Virus record (IMG/VR): IMGVR_UViG_3300031972_002122
Span: 64,571 to 128,570 of that record
From: a virus
Reading direction: 5' to 3' (one strand)
Length of the DNA: 64,000 nucleotides
Positions within the stretch are counted from its first letter, which is position 1. Each line of letters starts with the position of its first letter. The notes below the pieces were generated by a model. It saw nothing but the letters and a program-made list of their open reading frames with translations, was not told the origin of the DNA and made no database searches. A program made the position numbers and the translations under genes. Positions 34,905 through 57,204 of this stretch are shown here, in pieces.

Positions 34905-34973
34905 ATGGAAAATAGAGAAGACATAGAATATTATTATAGCATTACCAATGGGTGTGCTATCGTTGTGGTGTAA
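34905..34973 (+). CDS. Tyr-run uORF (MENREDIEYYYSITNGCAIVVV) reading into tRNA-Tyr
   Basis: TAT TAT TAT at 34929-34937, 12 nt before the tRNA. Confidence 0.7.
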   Translation: MENREDIEYYYSITNGCAIVVV

Positions 34974-38107: not shown

Positions 38108-38206
38108 ATGAAAGAAAGAACTGAAATATCGAGTAGTAGTTCCAGATACTGGAAGGTGAACCTAGCAGGGTCTAGGACTGGATTGCTAATCCATGGGGTC
38201 GGGTAA
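38108..38206 (+). CDS. Ser-run uORF (MKERTEISSSSSRYW...) reading into tRNA-Ser
   Basis: TCG AGT AGT AGT TCC at 38129-38143, 7 nt before the tRNA. Confidence 0.72.
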   Translation: MKERTEISSSSSRYWKVNLAGSRTGLLIHGVG

Positions 38207-38238
38207 AACTGACTGGGCTTCGATTGCTCCTCCTTCCG
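38151..38238 (+). tRNA. tRNA-Ser(GCT)
   Basis: GGAAGG/CCTTCC-G; TGGA-TTGCTAA-TCCA; long variable arm. Confidence 0.82.
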
Positions 38239-38245
38239 CTTAATT

Positions 38246-38430: not shown

Positions 38431-38484
38431 ATGAAAGTAATAAATACATACAATCGATTACGACTGCTACTCTTACCTGAGTAG
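38431..38484 (+). CDS. Leu-run leader peptide (MKVINTYNRLRLLLLPE)
   Basis: TTA CGA CTG CTA CTC TTA; followed by a hairpin and four tRNA-Leu genes. Confidence 0.78.
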   Translation: MKVINTYNRLRLLLLPE

Positions 38485-38521
38485 CCTCACCACTTCAAAA
38501 TTCAGTGGGGGGCAAATCTAT

Positions 38522-38595
38522 GCCCCCATGGTGGAACTGGAATACACGTTTGATTAAGGATCAAAAGCTTGCGAGTTCGAATCTCGCTGGGGGTA
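38522..38595 (+). tRNA. tRNA-Leu(AAG), short variable loop
   Basis: GCCCCCA/TGGGGGT-A; TTTGA-TTAAGGA-TCAAA. Confidence 0.85.
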
Positions 38596-38605
38596 CAAAA
38601 AGAAA

Positions 38606-38666
38606 CCGATCGGGTACACGGTATACCCGATTGGGTACACGGTATACCCGATTGGGTATATCCGAT
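38606..38666. repeat. 21-bp tandem repeat (~2.9 copies), each copy a hairpin
   Basis: CCGATYGGGTACACGGTATAC x2 plus a partial third copy. Confidence 0.85.
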
Positions 38667-42617: not shown

Positions 42618-42752
42618 ATGAAAGATTTGATGAACATAGAACGTGTGGACGAACCAGCCGAGGAGACATGGCGCGGTCGTCTAAATGGACTAGGACACCA
42701 GACTTTCAATCTGGACGATGCGGGTTCGATCCCCGTCCGCGCTACCAAGTAG
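42618..42752 (+). CDS. Glu-rich uORF (MKDLMNIERVDEPAEET...) reading through tRNA-Glu
   Basis: GAA, GAA, GAG GAG within the last 10 codons before the tRNA. Confidence 0.68.
   Translation: MKDLMNIERVDEPAEETWRGRLNGLGHQTFNLDDAGSIPVRATK
42670..42747 (+). tRNA. tRNA-Glu(TTC)
   Basis: GGCGCGG/CCGCGCT-A-CCA; CCAGA-CTTTCAA-TCTGG. Confidence 0.93.
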
Positions 42753-44119: not shown

Positions 44120-45030
44120 TGGGAGGTGGAACGTATAATTTTAATGCTAGAGCTACGTCTTCGGTTACTAAAGGTTTTAACAAGGCAACTGTTGATTCGT
44201 TGGATACTGTATTTAAGCAGCAACGACAACGCCGAGTGCATGATAGTCTCGACCCACGCGGTGTGGTTATTCGGGAATCTAGGGATGGTGAGGATCACCC
44301 AGAATCATTAGCTATTTTAGTTGGTATAGATGTCACAACATCAATGGGTAACGTCCCAGTATTGTTAATACGTGACGGACTACCCAATATGATACAGCGT
44401 ATATTCGAGGAGGGTATCGCTGATCCACAGGTGGCGTTCATTGCCATCGGTGATCATGAGTGTGATAACTATCCATTACAGATCGGGCAGTTCGAATCTT
44501 CGGATCAGCTACTAGATGAGTCGTTGACCAACACCTATATTGAAGGTGGTGGTGGTGGCAATGGTGGTGAGAGTTATTTGTTAGCTTGGTACCACGCCGC
44601 GATGCACACGTCAATTGATTGTTTTGAAAAGCGCGGACAGAAAGGGGTTCTTATAACAATTGGTGATGAGCCATGTCTTAATAAGGTTTCTGGATCAGTA
44701 TTAGCTAGGTTGTATAATTTACAATCTGAACTAGATTATTCAGCAGCAGAATTGTTAAAACTTGCTTCGGAGAAGTATGATGTGTATCATATCAATGTCG
44801 GATCGACGTATTCTGGGTATAGATCGAGTACTAAGAATTATTGGAAAGAGTTGCTTAGTGATCATTTCATCGACGCTAAAAGTCATGAAGATATTCCTAG
44901 AATTGTTGCGGAGCTGACGTCTAAGAGTTATAGTGGTACTCGGCAGAAAGTTGAGACTGACTATGCTGAGGCTTATAATGGATCACCTACAGACGTGGAT
45001 GATATTAAAGAACCTAAAATCACATTATAA
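44119..45030 (+). CDS. vWA (MIDAS) domain protein
   Basis: DVTTSMG (DxTxS), AIGDHECD, EGGGGGNGGESY, ITIGDE. Confidence 0.85.
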   Translation: MGGGTYNFNARATSSVTKGFNKATVDSLDTVFKQQRQRRVHDSLDPRGVVIRESRDGEDHPESLAILVGIDVTTSMGNVPVLLIRDGLPNMIQRIFEEGIADPQVAFIAIGDHECDNYPLQIGQFESSDQLLDESLTNTYIEGGGGGNGGESYLLAWYHAAMHTSIDCFEKRGQKGVLITIGDEPCLNKVSGSVLARLYNLQSELDYSAAELLKLASEKYDVYHINVGSTYSGYRSSTKNYWKELLSDHFIDAKSHEDIPRIVAELTSKSYSGTRQKVETDYAEAYNGSPTDVDDIKEPKITL

Positions 45031-46178
45031 TGAATGTAAGTATTGTCACTGGAGTTGGATATGGCGACGAAGGTAAAGGCGTAACCACTAAGTGGCTATG
45101 CGAGCAATTGTTATCTGGGAATGATGATGTACATGTGATGGTAGTCCGATTTGGTGGTGGAAATCAAGTCGGACATACCACCATGGTTGATGATTTCATT
45201 CACACACATCATCACACTGGTGCTGGAACCTTAGTAAATGTACCAACGTTCTATTCTAGATTCTGTACTGTAGACCCAATTAACACGGTATCTGAGATTG
45301 AGTTCTTAACCCAGAAGGGATTTACACCACGTAATATGTATGACCCACGGTGTATGATTGTAACTCCACTCGATGTGATTTACAATCGAATGCGTCATGC
45401 TAAAACACAACACGGAAGTGTTGGGGTGGGGTTTGGTGCAACTATTGCTAGAAATGAATCACACTACCGACTATATGTTGCCGACATTGCAACTCGGGAG
45501 ATATTCATCCAGAAGTGTAAGGGTATCCAGCAATATTATAACAGCCTAGGTGTGGATTTTGATCTAGATTGTGAGGCGTTTTACATCGACTGTATTAACT
45601 TTTTAGATATTGTGGAGGTAAGCAATCTAAATCTGGAGATAACACGTTACATTGGCTCAAAATCGTCCCATATAGTATTTGAGGGGCATCAAGGGGTATT
45701 GCTAGATCAGGAATATGGTGTATTTCCCCATGTTACTAGATCAAAGACTACATGTAAGAATGCATTCACGATACTTGAAGAAGAGAACCTTAACGGGATA
45801 TGTGAGCATATAAATCAATTCATGGTAACGCGAGCATATCATACACGTCATGGTAATGGGTATTTTGAAGAGGAGGATATTTTACTGACAAATACTGAGT
45901 TTGAAACTAATAAATTCAGTGAGCATCAGGGAGCATTTAAAACAGCTCCACTTAACAAAGCATTATTGACTAGGGGAGTACTTTGTAATCTTATGGATGA
46001 GTCTGACTTAGGAAATATTAAAAGACATCTAGTAGTTACGTGTTGTGATCAAGTAGAGTCTTATGAGGACGTCATTGAATATATTTCTGAAACCACCCAA
46101 CTACTGGACACTCTGTGTATTAATGACCATCCATCAGGAAACATTAGACTATATGCCAAGGAAGAAAAAGATAACTAA
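45030..46178 (+). CDS. purA: adenylosuccinate synthetase-like protein (divergent PurA family)
   Basis: GYGDEGKG, RFGGGNQVGHT, HGSVGVG, FEGHQGVLLDQEYGVFPHVTRS, TRHGNG. Confidence 0.85.
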   Translation: MNVSIVTGVGYGDEGKGVTTKWLCEQLLSGNDDVHVMVVRFGGGNQVGHTTMVDDFIHTHHHTGAGTLVNVPTFYSRFCTVDPINTVSEIEFLTQKGFTPRNMYDPRCMIVTPLDVIYNRMRHAKTQHGSVGVGFGATIARNESHYRLYVADIATREIFIQKCKGIQQYYNSLGVDFDLDCEAFYIDCINFLDIVEVSNLNLEITRYIGSKSSHIVFEGHQGVLLDQEYGVFPHVTRSKTTCKNAFTILEEENLNGICEHINQFMVTRAYHTRHGNGYFEEEDILLTNTEFETNKFSEHQGAFKTAPLNKALLTRGVLCNLMDESDLGNIKRHLVVTCCDQVESYEDVIEYISETTQLLDTLCINDHPSGNIRLYAKEEKDN

Positions 46179-47034: not shown

Positions 47035-47668
47035 TATATTGAGTGAATCGTTAGACTTTGGCTTAATCAATGAGGCTGGACTAGCCAGAGTTTTATCTAG
47101 GGTCGGTGGTAAGGATTTTATTATAGCATCGGCGTATCGGTACGGGAATTCTAATAAGGAAAATCGAAGACGTAATGGTGAACTTTTAAATTATCTAAAC
47201 ACTAAGAGGATGGGCGGTTACGTTTTAATTGGACACTGGCAAGAAGCACCCGACGGGATAGAGTGGAAGGACGCTGATCAGGATCAGTTGACGGATTCTA
47301 TAGAAGAAGCTATTCTATTTATCAAGCCTGATGATATGAGTCGTGATGAATTTACACAAATTGGGGTAGACATAACCAATCAATATAATCAAGATGCGGT
47401 ATTATTAGGTTTAAACAGTTCTGAACTAGACGCTGAACCTGAAGCTGGAGCTCCGTCGTTAGATAATATGGATGTGTATCTACTCTTTAAGGATGGCGGT
47501 CGTGAGAAAATAGGCACCAGACTGACATTGAATAAAATATCTCAGGCTTATTCTCAATTAAAATCTAAACCAAACATTCCGTTTGTATTTGAAGGTGTGC
47601 TACATCCTACGAATAATCTGGGTAAGCAGCTCTTTAAGATAAAAAATATATTGTATGAAATTAATTGA
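47021..47668 (+). CDS. hypothetical protein (MKLIDIL.E N-terminus)
   Basis: IASAYR..NKENRRRN..L; YNQDAVL. Confidence 0.7.
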   Translation: MKLIDILSESLDFGLINEAGLARVLSRVGGKDFIIASAYRYGNSNKENRRRNGELLNYLNTKRMGGYVLIGHWQEAPDGIEWKDADQDQLTDSIEEAILFIKPDDMSRDEFTQIGVDITNQYNQDAVLLGLNSSELDAEPEAGAPSLDNMDVYLLFKDGGREKIGTRLTLNKISQAYSQLKSKPNIPFVFEGVLHPTNNLGKQLFKIKNILYEIN

Positions 47669-48341
47669 TATGTTAATAGAAACGTTGGTGACTGAAGGCG
47701 TGTATGATCCAGCGATATTTAAAGCAATTTTCATAGTAGGCGGTGCAGGCTCTGGGAAGACATTCGTTAGGAATAAATCGACTAGAGGATTGGGTTATAA
47801 AGTGGTGACGTCGGATGATATGCTTGTTTCGCTAATGAACAAGAATAATCTATCACTAAAAATGCCCCCAGAGGAGGATGATGAGCGTGATGCACTAAGA
47901 ACTATCGCTAAGGATAAAACAGACGATCGATTAGACATGTATCTAGAAAATCGCCTAGGTGTTATTATTGAAGGTACAGGGCATAATTATGAAAATATCA
48001 AAAATACTCAGCGGAGATTAGCTGAACTTGGGTACGACACGTTTATGATCTTTGTGAACGTTCCAATGGATGTAGCATTAGATAGAAATGCTAAACGAGA
48101 TAGATCAGTTCCACCAGATATTGTTAAAGAGAAATGGCTCAACGCTCAGCAAAACTTGGGTAGGTATCAGTCACTATTTGGTCGGAATAATGTTTCTATC
48201 ATAGATAATGATGACCCATCCGAGAATGTATTTGAACGAATGTGGAAAAACGTTATGATTTTTACCAAGATGAAGGTCAAAAATCACCGAGCAGTGGAGT
48301 GGATAAAGCAGCAATTGAAAAAAAAAGACAGAAATAATTAA
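47655..48341 (+). CDS. P-loop kinase, zeta-toxin/AAA_33-like
   Basis: GGAGSGKT, IIEGTG, VALDRNAKRDRSVP. Confidence 0.85.
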   Translation: MKLIDMLIETLVTEGVYDPAIFKAIFIVGGAGSGKTFVRNKSTRGLGYKVVTSDDMLVSLMNKNNLSLKMPPEEDDERDALRTIAKDKTDDRLDMYLENRLGVIIEGTGHNYENIKNTQRRLAELGYDTFMIFVNVPMDVALDRNAKRDRSVPPDIVKEKWLNAQQNLGRYQSLFGRNNVSIIDNDDPSENVFERMWKNVMIFTKMKVKNHRAVEWIKQQLKKKDRNN

Positions 48342-51398: not shown

Positions 51399-52577
51399 AT
51401 GAAACAAGTAATAAGTAGTCAGAAGAAGCCAATTAAGATGTGGCTAGATAATCTGGAGCATGGAGCGATCCAGCAAGCTAAGAACTTGGCGAACTTGCCA
51501 TTCTTATTTAAGCATGTTGCGATTATGCCAGACTCACATCAGGGTTATGGTATGCCGATCGGTGGTGTACTAGCTACTGAAGGTGTGGTTATACCGAATG
51601 CTGTCGGTGTTGACATTGGATGTGGGATGTGTAGTGTTAAGACTAGCATCAAAACGGAAGAGATTGATAAAATTGACTTCTCAAAGTTAATGAACTTGAT
51701 CCGTAAGAAGGTTCCAGTGGGATTTAACCATCACCAGCGAAATCAGAATTCCAAGTGGATGCCTGATGGGATGGATGATGTACCAAAGACTGGTAACATT
51801 CGGAAGGAGTTGAGTAGTGCGCTGAAGCAAGTAGGCACACTCGGTGGTGGTAATCACTTTATAGAGATACAAGCTGGTGATGATGGCTATGTGTGGATAA
51901 TGATTCACTCAGGGTCACGTAACTTAGGTTATAAGACAGCTAGACACCATAACACGTTGGCTAAAGAGATCAATAAGAAATATTGGTCTGAGGTTCCACC
52001 ATCGTGGGATTTAGCATTCTTACTGATCGACTCGCAGGAGGGACAGGATTATATAAGTGAGCTTAATTATGCGACGAAGTTTGCGCTAGCAAACCGTGCA
52101 CATATGATGGAAGCTGTTAAAGAATGTTTAATTGATGTAGCGGGATGGGGTGTTACGTTTGATCCGATGATCAACAAGCCACATAACTTTGCGGAGATGG
52201 AACATCACTTTGGTAAGAATGTTATGGTACACCGTAAGGGTGCTTGTCGGGCTAGGAATGGTGAAGTGGGTATGATACCCGGCTCTCAAGGAACGCACTC
52301 GTATATCGTGAAGGGTAAGGGTGAGGAAAACTCATTCCAGTCTTGCTCACACGGTGCTGGTAGAGTGATGGGACGTAAAGCCGCTCAGAGAAGTTTAGAT
52401 TTTGACACTGAGGTTAAGCGGTTGAATGACATGGGAGTGTACCACACATTAGAAACGGTAAAGCAATTAGATGAAGCTGCAGGGGCATATAAAGATATTG
52501 ACCTCGTGATGGAAAACCAATCTGATCTAGTAGAAATATTAGTGAAGCTGAAGCCATTAGCAGTAGTAAAAGCATAA
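51399..52577 (+). CDS. rtcB: RNA ligase RtcB
   Basis: MPDSHQGYGMPIGG, VGVDIGCGM, GTLGGGNHFIE, HSGSR, HN, HRKGA, SCSHGAGR, DEAAGAYKDI. Confidence 0.96.
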   Translation: MKQVISSQKKPIKMWLDNLEHGAIQQAKNLANLPFLFKHVAIMPDSHQGYGMPIGGVLATEGVVIPNAVGVDIGCGMCSVKTSIKTEEIDKIDFSKLMNLIRKKVPVGFNHHQRNQNSKWMPDGMDDVPKTGNIRKELSSALKQVGTLGGGNHFIEIQAGDDGYVWIMIHSGSRNLGYKTARHHNTLAKEINKKYWSEVPPSWDLAFLLIDSQEGQDYISELNYATKFALANRAHMMEAVKECLIDVAGWGVTFDPMINKPHNFAEMEHHFGKNVMVHRKGACRARNGEVGMIPGSQGTHSYIVKGKGEENSFQSCSHGAGRVMGRKAAQRSLDFDTEVKRLNDMGVYHTLETVKQLDEAAGAYKDIDLVMENQSDLVEILVKLKPLAVVKA

Positions 52578-52579
52578 AG

Positions 52580-52674
52580 ATATCCTGACGTCAGGTTCGA
52601 TTCCTGAATTCCACCACGGTACCATTGGGTGGATGTTCTTTGCGCAAAGAATTCCTTGGTGGCAGTTGGGACAT
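52580..52674 (+). ncRNA. permuted tRNA-like RNA (YrlA-like arrangement)
   Basis: outer stem ATATCCTGAC/GTTGGGACAT enclosing a T arm TCAGG-TTCGATT-CCTGA, then a TCCACC/GGTGGA hairpin. Confidence 0.5.
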
Positions 52675-52693
52675 TTTATAACATATTCAATAT

Positions 52694-52948
52694 ATGAAAT
52701 TTATTGTAACCTCAGTAATATATTTGGATGATGTACTCGTCGATAGTCGAGTGTCATTCTGTGAGAATGAATCATTGATGAAAGCAGTTGACGCTGAATG
52801 TCGTAGACGTATGGATTTCTCCGAGGAGAATAATGTACTGACGCCATCACTATCATTTCATATTAGAGAGAATTGTATCATAGTACAAGATACAAGAGCT
52901 CAAGCGGTGCACGTTGTGGCACCATTTATAAATTGCCTCGGGAGCTGA
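52694..52948 (+). CDS. hypothetical protein
   Basis: ORF track. Confidence 0.55.
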   Translation: MKFIVTSVIYLDDVLVDSRVSFCENESLMKAVDAECRRRMDFSEENNVLTPSLSFHIRENCIIVQDTRAQAVHVVAPFINCLGS

Positions 52949-53007
52949 CAAGGCGTAGCGACTGGCTGTTAACCAGAGGGCGGTGGGTTCGATTCCCACC
53001 CGAGGCG
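52935..53007 (+). tRNA. tRNA-Asn(GTT)
   Basis: GCCTCGG/CCGAGGC-G; CTGG-CTGTTAA-CCAG. Confidence 0.9.
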
Positions 53008-53111
53008 CAAAACATACAGGTAGATTGTGAGGTATAAGCAATCTTTTAATCTTGATACTTGCTTTAAATAGCACAGAACGCTTAGTCTAGTATCATCCTA
53101 TGTGTTAATTT

Positions 53112-53185
53112 AGCCTCATGGCGCAATTGGATAGCGCACTTGACTACGAATCAAGAGGTTGAAGGTTCGAATCCTTCTGGGGCTA
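53112..53185 (+). tRNA. tRNA-Arg(ACG)
   Basis: AGCCTCA/TGGGGCT; CTTGA-CTACGAA-TCAAG. Confidence 0.93.
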
Positions 53186-53200
53186 CAAAATATAAATACA

Positions 53201-53716
53201 ATGGATCGTGTTTTTAAAACAATGGATGGTGAAGTAGTTGACGTGATACCATACACGTTCGATTTCATCCGAGACAACAAAGGGACTAAAATCTTTGTTG
53301 GAGCAGACTCACAAGTTCGTAGGTATACTATCAAGTACGCCGTATGTATTGTGTATCGATATGGTACGCTCTTCTCATACACCGAGGGTGGTGTGAAGCG
53401 TGAGATCGGGAAGGGATGTCACGTACTTAAATCGGTCTGGGAGGTACCCAAGCGTGGTGCTGGTACTGGTGAAGCGTTGTTGATTAAGAGGTTGATGGAT
53501 GAAATAACGACATCTATAGTAACTGCAGAGACATTGCGAGAAAACGCGATACACGTTGAACAAATTGATTTTGACTTGAATGATGATGATCAGTGCGCGT
53601 CACATAAAATGGTGAGTACTGCGAGAGGTTGGGCAACTGGTCTTGGATATAAAGTGAGTATAAAACCAGATATGCAGTTCGCTACTAAGGCAGCTAACCA
53701 TATTGTAAACCATTAA
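53201..53716 (+). CDS. RNase H-like YkuK (DUF458) family protein
   Basis: KIFVGADSQ, RLMDEITTS, IDFDLN, IKPD..ATKAAN. Confidence 0.8.
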   Translation: MDRVFKTMDGEVVDVIPYTFDFIRDNKGTKIFVGADSQVRRYTIKYAVCIVYRYGTLFSYTEGGVKREIGKGCHVLKSVWEVPKRGAGTGEALLIKRLMDEITTSIVTAETLRENAIHVEQIDFDLNDDDQCASHKMVSTARGWATGLGYKVSIKPDMQFATKAANHIVNH

Positions 53717-53720
53717 TAAT

Positions 53721-53750
53721 ATGAAGTATAAACGAAAATATAAACAGTAA
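53721..53750 (+). CDS. Lys-rich leader peptide (MKYKRKYKQ)
   Basis: AAG plus 3x AAA in 9 codons; followed by a hairpin and three tRNA-Lys genes. Confidence 0.72.
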   Translation: MKYKRKYKQ

Positions 53751-53783
53751 TTAACTTCACCAGCGAGTCTGGGGGAGTTAAAT

Positions 53784-53856
53784 ACCCCCAATGCTCGTAT
53801 GGTAGAGCACCTGACTTTTAATCAGGGTATAGTGAGTTCGAATCTCACTGGGGGTA
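53784..53856 (+). tRNA. tRNA-Lys(TTT)
   Basis: ACCCCCA/TGGGGGT; CCTGA-CTTTTAA-TCAGG. Confidence 0.92.
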
Positions 53857-53866
53857 CATATGATAT

Positions 53867-53938
53867 CCGCTCGAAGCATTGCTGGCGATGTTCTTGGCTC
53901 TTAACCTTGAGAATTGGGTTCGATTCCCGACGGGCGGA
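53867..53938 (+). tRNA. tRNA-Lys(CTT)
   Basis: CCGCTCG/CGGGCGG; CTCTTAA loop; weak anticodon stem. Confidence 0.78.
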
Positions 53939-53947
53939 CAATTTTAA

Positions 53948-54038
53948 ACCCCCATAGCTGAATTGGAAGCAGTACTGTAAGGGAACAAGCAACGCACTTT
54001 TAATGCGTGGGATGTGAGTTCGAGTCTCACTGGGGGTA
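53948..54038 (+). tRNA. tRNA-Lys(TTT) with enlarged D loop
   Basis: ACCCCCA/TGGGGGT; ACGCA-CTTTTAA-TGCGT; ~17 extra nt in the D loop. Confidence 0.8.
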
Positions 54039-54093
54039 CTAAAATATATTACGTAATTTGTATAATGTTGAGAATTTTTTATATTTGCTTTAT

Positions 54094-54345
54094 ATGAATA
54101 AGAAAGATAAAGAAACGTATAAAAAGATTGTGGAAGGTGAATGGAAAGACATGCCTGAATTCCACCAAGACGATTTAACGTCTAAGCGAAAGATTGTTGT
54201 TCATTTTAGGAACGATGATGATGTAAAAAAGTTTGAGGAGTTGATGGATCAAAAGATAACGCCAAAGCAAAAATCGCTATGGTATCCATACATGCCTCCT
54301 AGACGGTATGCTCATAAACGATATATAGACGAAGATGAATCCTAG
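54094..54345 (+). CDS. small protein of the type found next to GREB1/TAGT-like glycosyltransferases
   Basis: WKDMPEF..IVVHFRN..F..LMDQKITPKQKSLWYP. Confidence 0.65.
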   Translation: MNKKDKETYKKIVEGEWKDMPEFHQDDLTSKRKIVVHFRNDDDVKKFEELMDQKITPKQKSLWYPYMPPRRYAHKRYIDEDES

Positions 54346-55201
54346 ATATCCTATATACATACCATCTAAGGGTCGATACGAGACGCGTAAGACCGTTAAA
54401 GCACTCGATGCTATATCGGTGCCATATCGGATCGTTGTAGAGCCACAGGAGTACGATAAATACGCTGCAGTCATTGACGAGCATAATATATTAGTACTCC
54501 CAGAGGATAACGTGAAGTTAATCGGTGCTCGGAATTGGATAAAGCAACATTCAATATCGGAGGGGTATGAGCGACATTGGCAACTTGATGATAATATAGA
54601 ACAGTTCAATAGGCTTAATAGAAATTACCAAGTCAAGGTATCGTCTGGGACTATATTTAGGTGTGCTGAAGATTTCACGGATAGGTATGACAACATAGCT
54701 TATTCAGGATTTCAATACGATCACTTCGCAAAGGCGAAGACTAAGATGTTACCATTTATATTGAATACACGGGTGTATTCGTGTACGTTAGTCAATAACC
54801 TTGCACCATACGCTTGGCGATCGATTTATAATGATGATACTGATGTGTGTCTTCAAGCTTTGAAAGATGGGTGGTGTACTGTGTTGTTCAACGCATTCCT
54901 CCAGTGTAAAGCTACGACAATGACAGTTAAGGGTGGAAACACTGAAGAGTTATATTTGATCGAGGATGGTCGTAAGAAGATGGCACAGGCGTTAGTAGAC
55001 TTACATCCAGACGTTGCTAAGGTAGCGTGGAGATTTAATCGATGGCAACATGTAGTGGACTATAGCTCATTCAAGTTGAATAATCGATTGCAGAAGAAAG
55101 ATGGTATAACGATCCCAGAAGGGATCAATAATTATGGTATGAAATTAGTCACCGTAGATTCTGATGAATACACACGGTGGGAAGCAAATAAGCTCCTTTA
55201 G
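54335..55201 (+). CDS. GREB1-like / TET-associated glycosyltransferase (putative DNA base modification)
   Basis: YPIYIPSKGR, GARNWI, WQLDDNI, YNDDTD.CLQAL..GWCT, KGGNT. Confidence 0.82.
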   Translation: MNPRYPIYIPSKGRYETRKTVKALDAISVPYRIVVEPQEYDKYAAVIDEHNILVLPEDNVKLIGARNWIKQHSISEGYERHWQLDDNIEQFNRLNRNYQVKVSSGTIFRCAEDFTDRYDNIAYSGFQYDHFAKAKTKMLPFILNTRVYSCTLVNNLAPYAWRSIYNDDTDVCLQALKDGWCTVLFNAFLQCKATTMTVKGGNTEELYLIEDGRKKMAQALVDLHPDVAKVAWRFNRWQHVVDYSSFKLNNRLQKKDGITIPEGINNYGMKLVTVDSDEYTRWEANKLL

Positions 55202-55266
55202 CTCAGTTGGTTTAGAGCACTTGTTTTACATGCATGGGGTCGTAGGTTCGAATCCTACAGGGAGCA
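55192..55266 (+). tRNA. tRNA-Val(TAC)
   Basis: GCTCCTT/AGGGAGC-A; TTTACAT loop. Confidence 0.88.
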
Positions 55267-55278
55267 CAAATTAAATAT

Positions 55279-55728
55279 ATGACAAATTCAGAGATAATAA
55301 GTTTAGGTATTAACATTGGCGTTTTTGACGAAACAGTAACAGATTTTGAATTACAATATATACTATTCACTCATTATATGGAGAGGATGGCTGTTATGGG
55401 CTTATTATCTAGTTCTGGTGGGGAATATGAAATATCAGATACTGGTAAGGCGGTGATTGAATTTCTAGTTAGTAATGAGTATACACTAAATGCTGATGAT
55501 TTGAAAATGTTTATGATGAACGACGTTGAACAATATGTACAATTAATACCTGTTATTGACGCGTTCGTGGAGTCTATTATACTCCTACACACTGACGGTG
55601 AAGATGTCTTAATTAATCGTCTTATAGACTTAGGTGCTAGGCGTGATCCTGATGAGATAGATGCATTGATTGAGATGCATAGCGAGATGGTGGAGCAGGT
55701 AAAGACCAAGTATAATATTACTGAATAA
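55279..55728 (+). CDS. hypothetical protein
   Basis: ORF track. Confidence 0.6.
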   Translation: MTNSEIISLGINIGVFDETVTDFELQYILFTHYMERMAVMGLLSSSGGEYEISDTGKAVIEFLVSNEYTLNADDLKMFMMNDVEQYVQLIPVIDAFVESIILLHTDGEDVLINRLIDLGARRDPDEIDALIEMHSEMVEQVKTKYNITE

Positions 55729-55731
55729 CAT

Positions 55732-55804
55732 GCTCCCTTGGCTCAACGGATAGAGTATCCGACTTCGAATCGGAGGATTATAGGTTCGAATCCTATAGGG
55801 AGTA
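55732..55804 (+). tRNA. tRNA-Arg(TCG)
   Basis: GCTCCCT/AGGGAGT; TCCGA-CTTCGAA-TCGGA. Confidence 0.93.
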
Positions 55805-55941
55805 CAAATAGGTTCTACCACATCCAGACGTGGACGGTAGATTATAAAAATAATTCCATAAAAGTTTGTTAATACCAATATTTTTTATATATTAGTGTTC
55901 TAAAAATTTATTGCATTTTTTATTTCATTTAAAACAACAAT

Positions 55942-56421
55942 ATGAAAGGTTCAATTTTTACGATTATGTTCATGCTATTGATTAGCACATTCATCACCGC
56001 ACAGACTGAAGCTCCAGTGGATGATGATCGTGGGTGGTATCAGGGTGATATACTGGCAGGTGCCAATACGACACTGGACAACACATCACTTTTAAATGTT
56101 CAGTTCTCACCAGTAGTTGGTTACGCCGTAACGGATTATGATATGGTAACGACATCGATCATTTACGCTGACAGTGATGGCTCGGCAAGTTACAGTGTTC
56201 AAGTTGGTTATCAACGAGCTGTATGGCTTGACGGCTTATATGTAGGTGCTGGATTGGGATTAGTTAATTTTACAGGGGAATCCAATACAATTATTAATGC
56301 TAATGTCGGATATTTTGCAAAATTAGGAAACTACTGGTATGTATCGCCAAGGCTTGGATTTGAGACCTCGGATGGGGATTCTAATTTGATGACTCAGCTA
56401 ACCTTTGGATTTGTTTTGTAA
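55942..56421 (+). CDS. outer-membrane beta-barrel protein (8-strand type) with signal peptide
   Basis: signal peptide, alternating beta strands (FSPVVGY, LYVGAGLG, YWYVSPRLGF), C-terminal LTFGFVL. Confidence 0.75.
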   Translation: MKGSIFTIMFMLLISTFITAQTEAPVDDDRGWYQGDILAGANTTLDNTSLLNVQFSPVVGYAVTDYDMVTTSIIYADSDGSASYSVQVGYQRAVWLDGLYVGAGLGLVNFTGESNTIINANVGYFAKLGNYWYVSPRLGFETSDGDSNLMTQLTFGFVL

Positions 56422-56446
56422 TAGTAAATAATAGTTAAACATATAC

Positions 56447-56479
56447 GAGGGAAGTTGATACATGTCAACTTCCCTTTTT
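56447..56479 (+). terminator. intrinsic terminator
   Basis: GAGGGAAGTTGATA/TGTCAACTTCCCTT plus U-run. Confidence 0.85.
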
Positions 56480-56486
56480 AATATAA

Positions 56487-56558
56487 GCTCCTATGGTGTA
56501 ATGGATAGCACAAGAGTTTTCTAAACTTTTAGTTGGGGTTCGAATCCCTGTAGGAGTA
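56487..56558 (+). tRNA. tRNA-Arg(TCT)
   Basis: GCTCCTA/TAGGAGT; AGAGT-TTTCTAA-ACTTT. Confidence 0.9.
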
Positions 56559-56694
56559 CAATCGTTAAGAAATGCCCGCTGATGATCTCGGTGGGTATTC
56601 TTATTAGTGTGGTTGTAATTTTATATCCATTTAATTTTATTTATTGATAAATTACATTTATATTAGCGTAAAATTACGATCACCAACCAAATAC

Positions 56695-56949
56695 ATGTAT
56701 ATGACGCCAATTGTTTTTAAAGATTTACATATTTTCGACTTGACTAGTGATAAGACTTGGGTAATATCTGGGGAGTTTTCATTCGATGATGACGAAGCGT
56801 ATCGAGATTTTATCACACAGATCGAGGACTCGTTCTCGCACACATTCGGATACACGGTAGTTGCACGGGCATTACCATCCAAAGAAGTCGAGGATGCAGA
56901 AAAAGCTATTGACGACGTAATAAATGGTACATTTTATGATCAAAAATGA
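56695..56949 (+). CDS. hypothetical protein
   Basis: ORF track, internal start. Confidence 0.5.
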   Translation: MYMTPIVFKDLHIFDLTSDKTWVISGEFSFDDDEAYRDFITQIEDSFSHTFGYTVVARALPSKEVEDAEKAIDDVINGTFYDQK

Positions 56950-57204
56950 TAGAAATACGCCGACTGCTAGGTTGTCTACTATCGAGTTGGGTGGTAATAC
57001 TTATCAAATTAGTGTGCAAGATGACGGCTCACTACACATCCCAGAAATTTGTGTAGTAATAACTAAACGTAATTTACGAGACCTTGTGGACTTGATTTCT
57101 GACGGTGGATATAATTATGACATATTGTCTGAATTATAGCGGATAATATTATGAAATGATAGAATTTTTTTATATATTGCGGCATAATCAAAAATACAAA
57201 TAGT

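Follow-up and report, generated by a model that had tools for sequence, protein, structure and literature searches.

A short lysine-rich frame and a hairpin precede the tRNA-Lys genes

The window analysed here is a stretch of 64,000 nucleotides (nt) that forms the second half of a 128,570-bp IMG/VR phage record (IMGVR_UViG_3300031972_002122; completeness 73% by CheckV). Within it, a short lysine-rich frame and a hairpin, together referred to as the Lys leader unit, lie between an RNaseH-like gene and a block of tRNA genes headed by tRNA-Lys(UUU) (Table 1). The unit is real and conserved. Its frame comprises nine sense codons including the ATG, with Lys specified by one AAG and three AAA codons, and these codons fit the isoacceptors downstream, AAA with the UUU and AAG with the CUU anticodon. 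The hairpin has 12 pairs and a single A.G mismatch, a predicted energy of -13.8 kcal/mol and a z-score of -4.64, and none of 200 shuffled sequences equalled it. Its 3′ arm carries CTGGGGG (53769-53775), which is found again at the 3′ end of tRNA-Lys(UUU) (53848-53854), and the TGGGGG within it (53770-53775) is the exact complement of the CCCCCA near the 5′ end of the same tRNA (53785-53790). Four strands can therefore be numbered in order, the two arms of the hairpin being strands 1 and 2, and the two sides of the tRNA acceptor stem being strand 3 (ACCCCCA, 53784-53790) and strand 4 (TGGGGGT, 53849-53855). When 146 nt of the region were folded, the leader hairpin and the tRNA cloverleaf both formed. 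An earlier reading of this DNA, made from the sequence only, had described the nine-codon Lys-rich frame, the hairpin placed directly after its stop codon (53751-53781) and the acceptor copy able to pair with CCCCCA, and all three are present as described.

The same sequence-only reading counted three tRNA-Lys genes. Two of these, tRNA-Lys(UUU) and tRNA-Lys(CUU), are canonical. The third (53948-54039) is an aberrant paralogue of tRNA-Lys(UUU), which ARAGORN labels Leu(taa) and which scores 26.1 bits against the Rfam tRNA model, under the cut-off of 29. It folds with an ACGCA/CUUUUAA/UGCGU anticodon arm and aligns to tRNA-Lys(UUU). There is no U-tract after the Lys hairpin, the next letters being AUACCCCCAAUG, and the terminator scan raised no flag there. 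A search of 52500-57000 with cmscan (E <= 1) gave no T-box match, returning only tRNA and Plastid-ycf2 matches.

Table 1. Positions of the leader units and associated features. Coordinates are those of the window unless a contig (L139) is named.
Feature	Position	Strand	Remarks
RNaseH-like gene (Pfam PF04308)	53201..53716	+	Double stop TAATAA, 4 nt before leader ATG; anchor for finding relatives
Lys leader frame, MKYKRKYKQ*	53721..53750	+	ATG AAG TAT AAA CGA AAA TAT AAA CAG TAA
Lys hairpin 5′ arm (strand 1), TTAACTTCACCAG	53751..53763	+	First base directly after the stop codon
Lys hairpin loop, CGAGT	53764..53768	+	From the predicted fold
Lys hairpin 3′ arm (strand 2), CTGGGGGAGTTAA	53769..53781	+	G-rich; TGGGGG at 53770-53775 pairs with strand 1 or with the tRNA 5′ strand
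AU at -2/-1	53782..53783	+	Sole unpaired leader bases beside the RNase P site
tRNA-Lys(UUU)	53784..53857	+	ARAGORN; Rfam tRNA, 45.5 bits
tRNA-Lys(CUU)	53867..53939	+	9 nt after tRNA-Lys(UUU); reads the leader AAG codon
Aberrant 92-nt tRNA-like gene	53948..54039	+	tRNA-Lys(UUU) paralogue; 18-nt insert between D and anticodon arms
Leu leader frame, MKVINTYNRLRLLLLPE*	38431..38484	+	After tRNA-Cys; Leu-rich, including RLRLLLLPE; Leu codons TTA, CTG, CTA, CTC, TTA
Leu hairpin, GCCUC-A-CCACU / AGUGGGGGGC	38484..38513	+	Starts at the stop codon; 3′ arm complements the 5′ end of the next tRNA
Type-I tRNA, anticodon AAG	38522..38596	+	Acceptor GCCCCCA/TGGGGGT; heads a block of four tRNA-Leu genes
Lbo-JY46 leader regions	L139 915-1245, 4470-4682, 5205-5407		Each with an upstream shared motif, TTTGGTAG...TTTGTATT

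Conservation in a divergent relative

Five homologues of the RNaseH-like protein were found (44-53% identity), the nearest cellular ones being in metagenome-assembled genomes (MAGs) of Flavobacteriales, and a scan of JGI metagenome contigs with the alignment of these homologues gave four loci. One contig, L092, was recovered through this linked gene and not through the leader itself; the C-terminus of its RNaseH-like protein shows 68% identity over matched residues 127-164. At 529-558, before a tRNA-Lys(UUU), it carries the frame ATG AGA TAT AAA CAA AAA TAT AAA CAA TAA (MRYKQKYKQ*). A hairpin of 10 pairs with a bulged A starts one nt past the stop codon, and is followed by CAU and then the tRNA. 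Identity between the window and L092 is concentrated in the frame (26/30 nt), against 29/59 upstream, 16/33 in the hairpin and spacer and 41/77 in the tRNA. A degenerate pattern of the frame matches once in all of IMG/VR (L118, where no tRNA lies close by) and never in 596 Gb of prokaryote genomes; being so rare, its occurrence in L092 is taken as homology rather than chance. Lack of conservation of the frame, which the earlier reading named as grounds for abandoning its proposal, is thus not what was found.

The hairpin has diverged from that of the window in step with its tRNA. The tRNA in L092 begins GCCCUC, the 3′ arm of the hairpin holds the exact complement, GAGGGC, and the 5′ arm is altered to match. 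Strands 1, 2 and 3 read CUUCACCAG / CUGGGGGAG / ACCCCCA in the window and UAGCUCUACUC / GAGAGGGCUA / GCCCUC in L092. When the leaders were paired with 32 tRNA 5′ ends, each paired best with its own tRNA type; for the L092 leader the energy with its own tRNA was -13.0, with -10.0 for the next best and a median of -5.0.

Other searches gave no useful relatives. A DNA search of the phage collection returned no match in either near or distant mode, and the 81-nt leader as query gave only short AT-rich chance matches. Single-protein scans of IMG/VR with the RNaseH-like, RtcB and PurZ-like proteins found no relatives, nor did the RNaseH-like alignment. A pattern for the tRNA 3′ end matched five loci with unrelated tRNAs, and the frame core matched 24 IMG/VR stretches, none of which is followed by a tRNA. 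A Lys-rich open reading frame (ORF) after the RNaseH-like gene of L091 was considered as a further leader and set aside; it has the look of a genuine small gene broken at an A8 run.

Two observations were made beside these relatives. Just upstream of the Lys leader of L092, at 440-528, a 26-nt direct repeat, ATTACCAGACATTGCCAGATAAATAA, occurs twice and may be a promoter or operator. On L119, a contig binned with a Flavobacteriales MAG, a 37-codon ORF (585-701) downstream of an RNaseH-like gene (47% identity) ends in DVRRRSIV, with the Arg codons AGA CGT AGG, and its stop lies 3 nt before a tRNA-Arg(UCU).

A paralogous unit before tRNA-Leu

A second unit of the same design lies within the window, ahead of a block of tRNA-Leu genes (Table 1). 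The codons of its Leu-rich frame are read by the four tRNA-Leu genes downstream. Strands 1, 2 and 3 are here GCCUCACCACU / AGUGGGGGGC / GCCCCC, and the loop-closing pair has changed in a compensatory manner, C-G in the Leu hairpin versus G-C in the Lys hairpin. The stop codon abuts the hairpin in all three units (Lys, L092 and Leu), and no U-tract follows the hairpin of either L092 or the Leu unit. The hairpin geometry, which the sequence-only reading took as stronger evidence than the Lys codons, is supported; the acceptor-mimic design is kept by co-variation in L092 and recurs before tRNA-Leu.

Could the hairpin be debris, its G-run the 3′ remnant of a decayed tandem tRNA copy and its frame a chance product of an AT-rich spacer? 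The loop and 3′ arm of the Leu leader match the T loop, T stem and acceptor 3′ strand of its own tRNA at 13 of 19 positions, CGAGTCT and GGGGG are common to the Lys leader and the 3′ end of the third tRNA, and tRNA arrays with HNH endonucleases turn over quickly. Neutral decay, however, would not keep a hairpin of 10-12 bp with compensating changes in three units, nor a 30-nt frame at 87% identity where the tRNA stands at 53%, and we consider debris a very unlikely explanation of the unit. An origin from a tRNA remnant is nevertheless compatible with a present function.

Several features of the surroundings were also noted. The tRNA with anticodon AAG (38522-38596) has its T arm, acceptor and 3′ end in common with tRNA-Lys. 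It lacks a long variable arm despite its Leu anticodon and looks like a Lys-type body with a changed anticodon. Between it and tRNA-Leu(CAA), at 38600-38666, are two tandem palindromic units of about 21 nt, GGGTACACGGTATACCCGATT, and a 60-nt fold of this segment reaches -28.8 kcal/mol. Further upstream, the earlier reading placed a tRNA-Ser(GCU) at about 38151-38238. Neither ARAGORN nor Rfam (E <= 10) calls a tRNA there; its minimum-energy fold is cloverleaf-like, with 38149-38240 folding as a type-II cloverleaf with a GCU anticodon loop. One frame of the 3′ end of this segment reads LRLLLLP, a heptapeptide that the Leu leader, 250 nt further downstream, encodes with different codons.

Cognate frames and leader pairing across the tRNA array

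The tRNA array was then treated as a whole, with block heads defined as the 21 tRNAs that have a preceding gap of at least 35 nt. For each head, short upstream windows free of stop codons were searched for the highest number of cognate residues, and this number was scored against the genome background and compared with 20,000 label shuffles. Cognate residues were enriched in all five settings tried (p = 0/20000, 0.00145, 0.0001, 0.0003 and 0.00745); under the first of these, the cognate residue came top of the 20 in four heads and second in five. Frames that start with ATG and hold at least three cognate residues in seven codons precede five of the 21 heads, namely Tyr (YYY), Ser (SSSSS), Leu, Lys and Glu. 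A GGGG stretch without an ATG precedes tRNA-Gly, and the remaining heads show nothing. Pairing was assessed in the same manner, as the energy of the duplex that the leader (positions -40 to -4) forms with the 5′-terminal 9 nt of its own tRNA, against shuffled pairings. Leaders paired preferentially with their own tRNA in four settings (p = 0.0009-0.007), with the Leu (-15.6), Lys (-12.8) and Pro (-12.7) leaders as examples. The Lys leader is thus more than a chance arrangement, for which the Leu paralogue, the L092 orthologue and the array-wide tests provide three independent lines of evidence.

Three frames follow a second architecture and run on into the tRNA body: YYY (34905-34973, tRNA-Tyr), SSSSS, encoded by TCG AGT AGT AGT TCC (38108-38206, the tRNA-Ser-like region), and E..E..EE (42618-42752, tRNA-Glu).

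An alternative is that the Lys frame is not translated. Its 30 nt might then act at the DNA or RNA level, as a promoter, operator or protein-binding site built of two TATAAAC repeats, with the hairpin as a processing or stability element separating the upstream mRNA from the tRNA precursor, and the Lys codons as a by-product of an A-rich signal. The direct repeat TATAAAC N5 TATAAAC is indeed present in both phages, the non-Lys codons are conserved too, the frame has no Shine-Dalgarno (SD) sequence, and similar A-rich 20-mers lie before genes in unrelated phages (4 of 24 IMG/VR matches: L099, L108, L115 and L116). On the other hand, TATAAAC occurs at 25 sites versus 17.6 expected in the 128.6-kb genome, with the leader holding the only tandem pair, and its spacing from a -35-like hexamer differs (18 nt in the window, 21 nt in L092). 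As a promoter, TATAAAC is unsupported and is not a recurrent motif of the genome. The ATG, reading frame, length and stop are all kept between the window and L092, and of the three codons that changed, one is synonymous and one replaces Lys with Arg. A signal of this kind would also leave unexplained the Leu, Ser, Tyr and Glu frames before their own tRNAs, the permutation result, and the stop codon abutting the hairpin in 3/3 units. We therefore regard an untranslated signal as unlikely, although deserving of serious attention.

Far less credible is a basic micropeptide, M(K/R)YK(R/Q)KYKQ, acting in trans. Its peptide sequence is conserved, Tyr and Gln included, but nine residues belong to no known family, the other tRNA leaders have cognate residues and no peptide motif in common, and the hairpin geometry would go unexplained. 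We give this idea hardly any credence.

A proposed ribosome-operated switch

Folding was repeated with pairing forbidden in a mask beginning at the stop codon, as a rough stand-in for a ribosome whose A site holds that codon. Without a mask, the minimum-energy fold at 3/3 loci contains both the hairpin and the acceptor stem. A 15-nt mask, reaching from the stop codon to 12 nt beyond it, abolishes the acceptor stem at 3/3 loci, with strand 2 now paired to strand 3; on L092 the mask started one base late (coordinates shifted by 1 nt). A 12-nt mask from the stop codon produced the flip in two of the three (the Leu unit and L092). In these in silico folds the two helices are mutually exclusive, and the mask that mimics a ribosome at the end of the ORF decides between them. 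As there is no U-tract after any of the three hairpins, intrinsic termination cannot be the output, and an effect on tRNA folding and RNase P processing is the simplest reading.

The unit can accordingly be pictured as a leader of translated cognate codons attached to an RNA switch of four strands, in which strands 3 and 4 would be the acceptor stem of tRNA-Lys. Pairing of strands 1 and 2 would leave strands 3 and 4 to pair, so that the cloverleaf could form and RNase P could mature the tRNA. A ribosome running freely to the stop codon would cover strand 1 and release strand 2 to pair with strand 3; without an acceptor stem, maturation of the three downstream tRNAs would be delayed or lost. 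Where charged tRNA-Lys is scarce, the ribosome would stall at the AAA and AAG codons 9-21 nt upstream, the hairpin would stay intact and the tRNA would fold. The outcome would be negative feedback of Lys-codon decoding capacity on the phage's own production of tRNA-Lys. We infer translation of the frame, coverage by the ribosome, the consequence for RNase P and the direction of control. For the direction, we favour stalling at Lys codons keeping the hairpin closed and shortage switching tRNA production on, because classical attenuators likewise have their stop codon directly against strand 1 and because the terminator-type leaders of Leptolyngbya phage Lbo-JY46, described below, imply induction on shortage. 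Initiation could be served by the double stop of the RNaseH-like gene, which the leader ATG follows after 4 nt, making re-initiation possible. The frame has no SD sequence of its own, which weighs little because a loose SD-like motif is found before only 35 of the 97 long ORFs of the window phage. Weak SD usage is a feature of the Flavobacteriales.

A number of points weigh against this model. The Lys frame is weak evidence when taken alone; at least four Lys in seven codons occur in 2-3% of random 100-150-nt windows of this AT-rich genome (p ~0.02-0.03), in keeping with the caution of the earlier reading that AT bias could account for the Lys codons. Conservation of the Tyr and Gln codons alongside those for Lys fits a constraint at the nucleotide level equally well. 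The missing SD sequence belongs here too. The sample for conservation is one orthologue and one paralogue, no clear cognate frame was seen at two other loci (L090 and L093), the one partial exception being a WW stretch that lacks an ATG, ahead of a tRNA-Trp in L093, and in the window 16 of the 21 heads lack an ATG-started cognate frame. Window sizes for the array statistics were picked after the data had been seen, all settings tried being those reported. Moreover, the hairpin and the cloverleaf are compatible at equilibrium, so any repression would have to act kinetically, with ribosome and polymerase tightly coupled. Even without a mask, the helix of strands 2 and 3 is predicted in partial transcripts, which makes the folding path uncertain. 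Lastly, only two to three leader bases are unpaired in both Lys units, and this could block RNase P and reverse the logic of control.

That reversed logic amounts to a separate explanation, in which the hairpin acts as a sequestor and keeps RNase P out. Once the tRNA had folded, a ribosome arriving at the stop codon would melt the hairpin and leave the leader single-stranded; translation would then license maturation, and stalling or a lack of translation would keep it off. The hairpin does end at -3 in the window and -4 in L092 and, being transcribed ahead of the tRNA, probably forms first. PMC7897497 describes a leader hairpin without a U stretch blocking RNase P, and states that positions -1 to -4 should be single-stranded. 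The Leu unit, however, has eight free leader bases, and sequestration is thus not common to all units. Nor does a sequestor give any role to the conserved, co-varying complementarity between strand 2 and the tRNA 5′ strand, and the positive feedback that it implies would be a poor response to loss of the tRNA. We judge the sequestor to be quite improbable.

As an explanation of the unit, the translated leader with a four-strand acceptor-stem switch stands, in our assessment, evenly poised between right and wrong. The wider proposition is more tentative, and we would sooner doubt than assert it: that these units are natural riboregulators, the location of a ribosome along a cognate mini-frame determining whether the tRNA acceptor stem forms, and each tRNA block gauging the decoding capacity of the cell for its own codons and adjusting its own maturation through folding and RNase P processing rather than through transcription termination.

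Comparison with known systems

Leader peptides that attenuate transcription are familiar from amino-acid operons (trpL, leuL, hisL and pheL). The principle is summarised in PMC1183508. Like these, the Lys unit has a short frame of cognate codons (four Lys in nine), a stop codon placed so that a terminating ribosome would mask strand 1, and four strands forming exclusive helices. Unlike these, it has no intrinsic terminator as its off structure, and the product that would be regulated is a tRNA and not a biosynthetic operon. Its putative off helix would capture the 5′ acceptor strand of the tRNA, with RNA folding and processing as the output.

The closest phage parallel found is in Lbo-JY46 (PP438436.1, L139), a cultured cyanophage in which a homologous RNaseH-like gene also sits within a tRNA array. 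Of five tRNA blocks examined there, three are preceded by frames matched to the tRNAs downstream: a Cys-rich frame, MINSIDIRNIDIVCAEGVNKCSCGLSFMCDGGCGCN, before Cys, Cys and Arg; a frame rich in T, Q, H, F and P, MKITRQHTQFWFPTGTGLGML, before Pro, Thr, Phe, Gln and His; and a frame rich in Leu and Ser, MKNFNTYYSLSLSLSQPTQELYLCAY, before Leu and Leu. A hairpin and a T-run follow all three frames, and the terminator scan flags one of them on the + strand (L139:5368-5400). The Lys unit resembles these leaders in having a frame of cognate residues directly before matching tRNAs in a phage array, with an RNaseH-like gene adjoining. It differs in lacking the U-tract terminator that they place before the tRNA and, on our model, in using the tRNA acceptor stem within the switch.

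An engineered system provides a parallel for the output. A leader hairpin beside the RNase P site, without a U stretch, controls tRNA 5′ processing in vivo in E. coli according to PMC7897497. As presented in that source, the 3′ part of the hairpin of this synthetic riboswitch is the tRNA 5′ leader, and the state of the hairpin sets the access of RNase P. The Lys unit has a U-stretch-free hairpin as well, reaching to -3 in the window and -4 in L092, and its effect on cleavage is a prediction. Whereas the synthetic device is described there as engineered and switched by theophylline through an aptamer, the Lys unit is natural, presumably switched by a ribosome and able to pair with the body of the tRNA.

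Translational attenuation of erm/cat resistance genes, of which ermB is an example (PMC8274638), offers a further comparison. In this type a hairpin downstream of a short leader frame is remodelled according to where the ribosome stands on the frame, and transcription does not terminate. There the stall is induced by a drug and the output is an exposed ribosome-binding site, whereas the Lys unit would respond to a shortage at its codons or of its tRNA and its output would be tRNA folding. The T-box riboswitch, too, is a cis-acting RNA that reports on a specific tRNA and involves pairing with the acceptor end. In contrast to the Lys unit, it binds the tRNA in trans through a specifier codon and the T-box bulge, needs no translation, and controls genes for aminoacyl-tRNA synthetases or amino-acid metabolism.

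Literature searches found no paper on leader peptides before tRNA genes and none mentioning Lbo-JY46, and the text of PMC8421152 contains neither 'leader' nor 'attenuat'. Among the readings considered, the most likely is that the Lys unit is a new form of leader-peptide attenuation, with a tRNA acceptor stem in place of the terminator. If this is true, it would be the first natural case found of ribosome-mediated attenuation logic applied to tRNA genes. It would also be a natural counterpart of the engineered RNase P riboswitch, acting by capture of the tRNA's own acceptor strand.

The sequence-only reading had interpreted the leader as an inducible backup for tRNA-Lys, pointing to PrrC. This is partly supported: the frame and the acceptor-mimic geometry are conserved, and induction by shortage and a link to PrrC are conjectures. 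PrrC is described in PMC1484252 as a tRNA-Lys anticodon nuclease, and phage tRNAs are now seen as counter-measures to tRNA-cleaving defences, with PMC11464382 and PMC11555353 pointing the same way. The only local context for a link to PrrC is an RtcB ligase gene, which lies 1.2 kb upstream of the Lys leader. Were the wider proposition true, the unit would act as a self-contained sensor, replenishing tRNA-Lys after its depletion by host defences or shut-off. At about 65 nt the design is compact and testable, and experiments on the related terminator type could use Lbo-JY46, which is cultured and has a named host.

Genomic setting

Sequencing runs containing the window are labelled seawater metagenome. 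One run is identical across 53598-53964; three others, one of them RNA, leave the leader uncovered. Coding is strongly biased to one strand, with 97 long ORFs on the + strand versus 3 on the - strand in the window phage. The tRNA-rich region spans 34.9-56.6 kb and holds 26 tRNAs called by ARAGORN, with four further tRNA-like matches by Rfam.

HNH endonucleases, a PurZ-like gene, a kinase-like ATPase, RtcB, the RNaseH-like gene and a TET-associated glycosyltransferase (TAGT) are interspersed with these tRNAs. An 83-residue ORF and the TAGT gene form a two-gene cassette (54094-55201), here inserted between tRNA blocks. The cassette is present at 68-80 other IMG/VR loci, none with nearby tRNAs: the TAGT search gave 80 loci that share only this cassette, and ARAGORN called 0 tRNAs in 80/80. 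Among five of their whole records that were searched, one has tRNAs, which are unrelated. At 56447-56476, with no cognate frame seen upstream, a 13-pair hairpin with a T-run lies 10 nt before tRNA-Arg(UCU) and is terminator-like. Inside the tRNA region are also the PurZ-like adenylosuccinate synthetase (45030-46178), the RtcB RNA ligase (51399-52577) and the polynucleotide-kinase-like ATPase (47655-48341), whose presence amid the tRNAs hints at base modification and tRNA repair functions.

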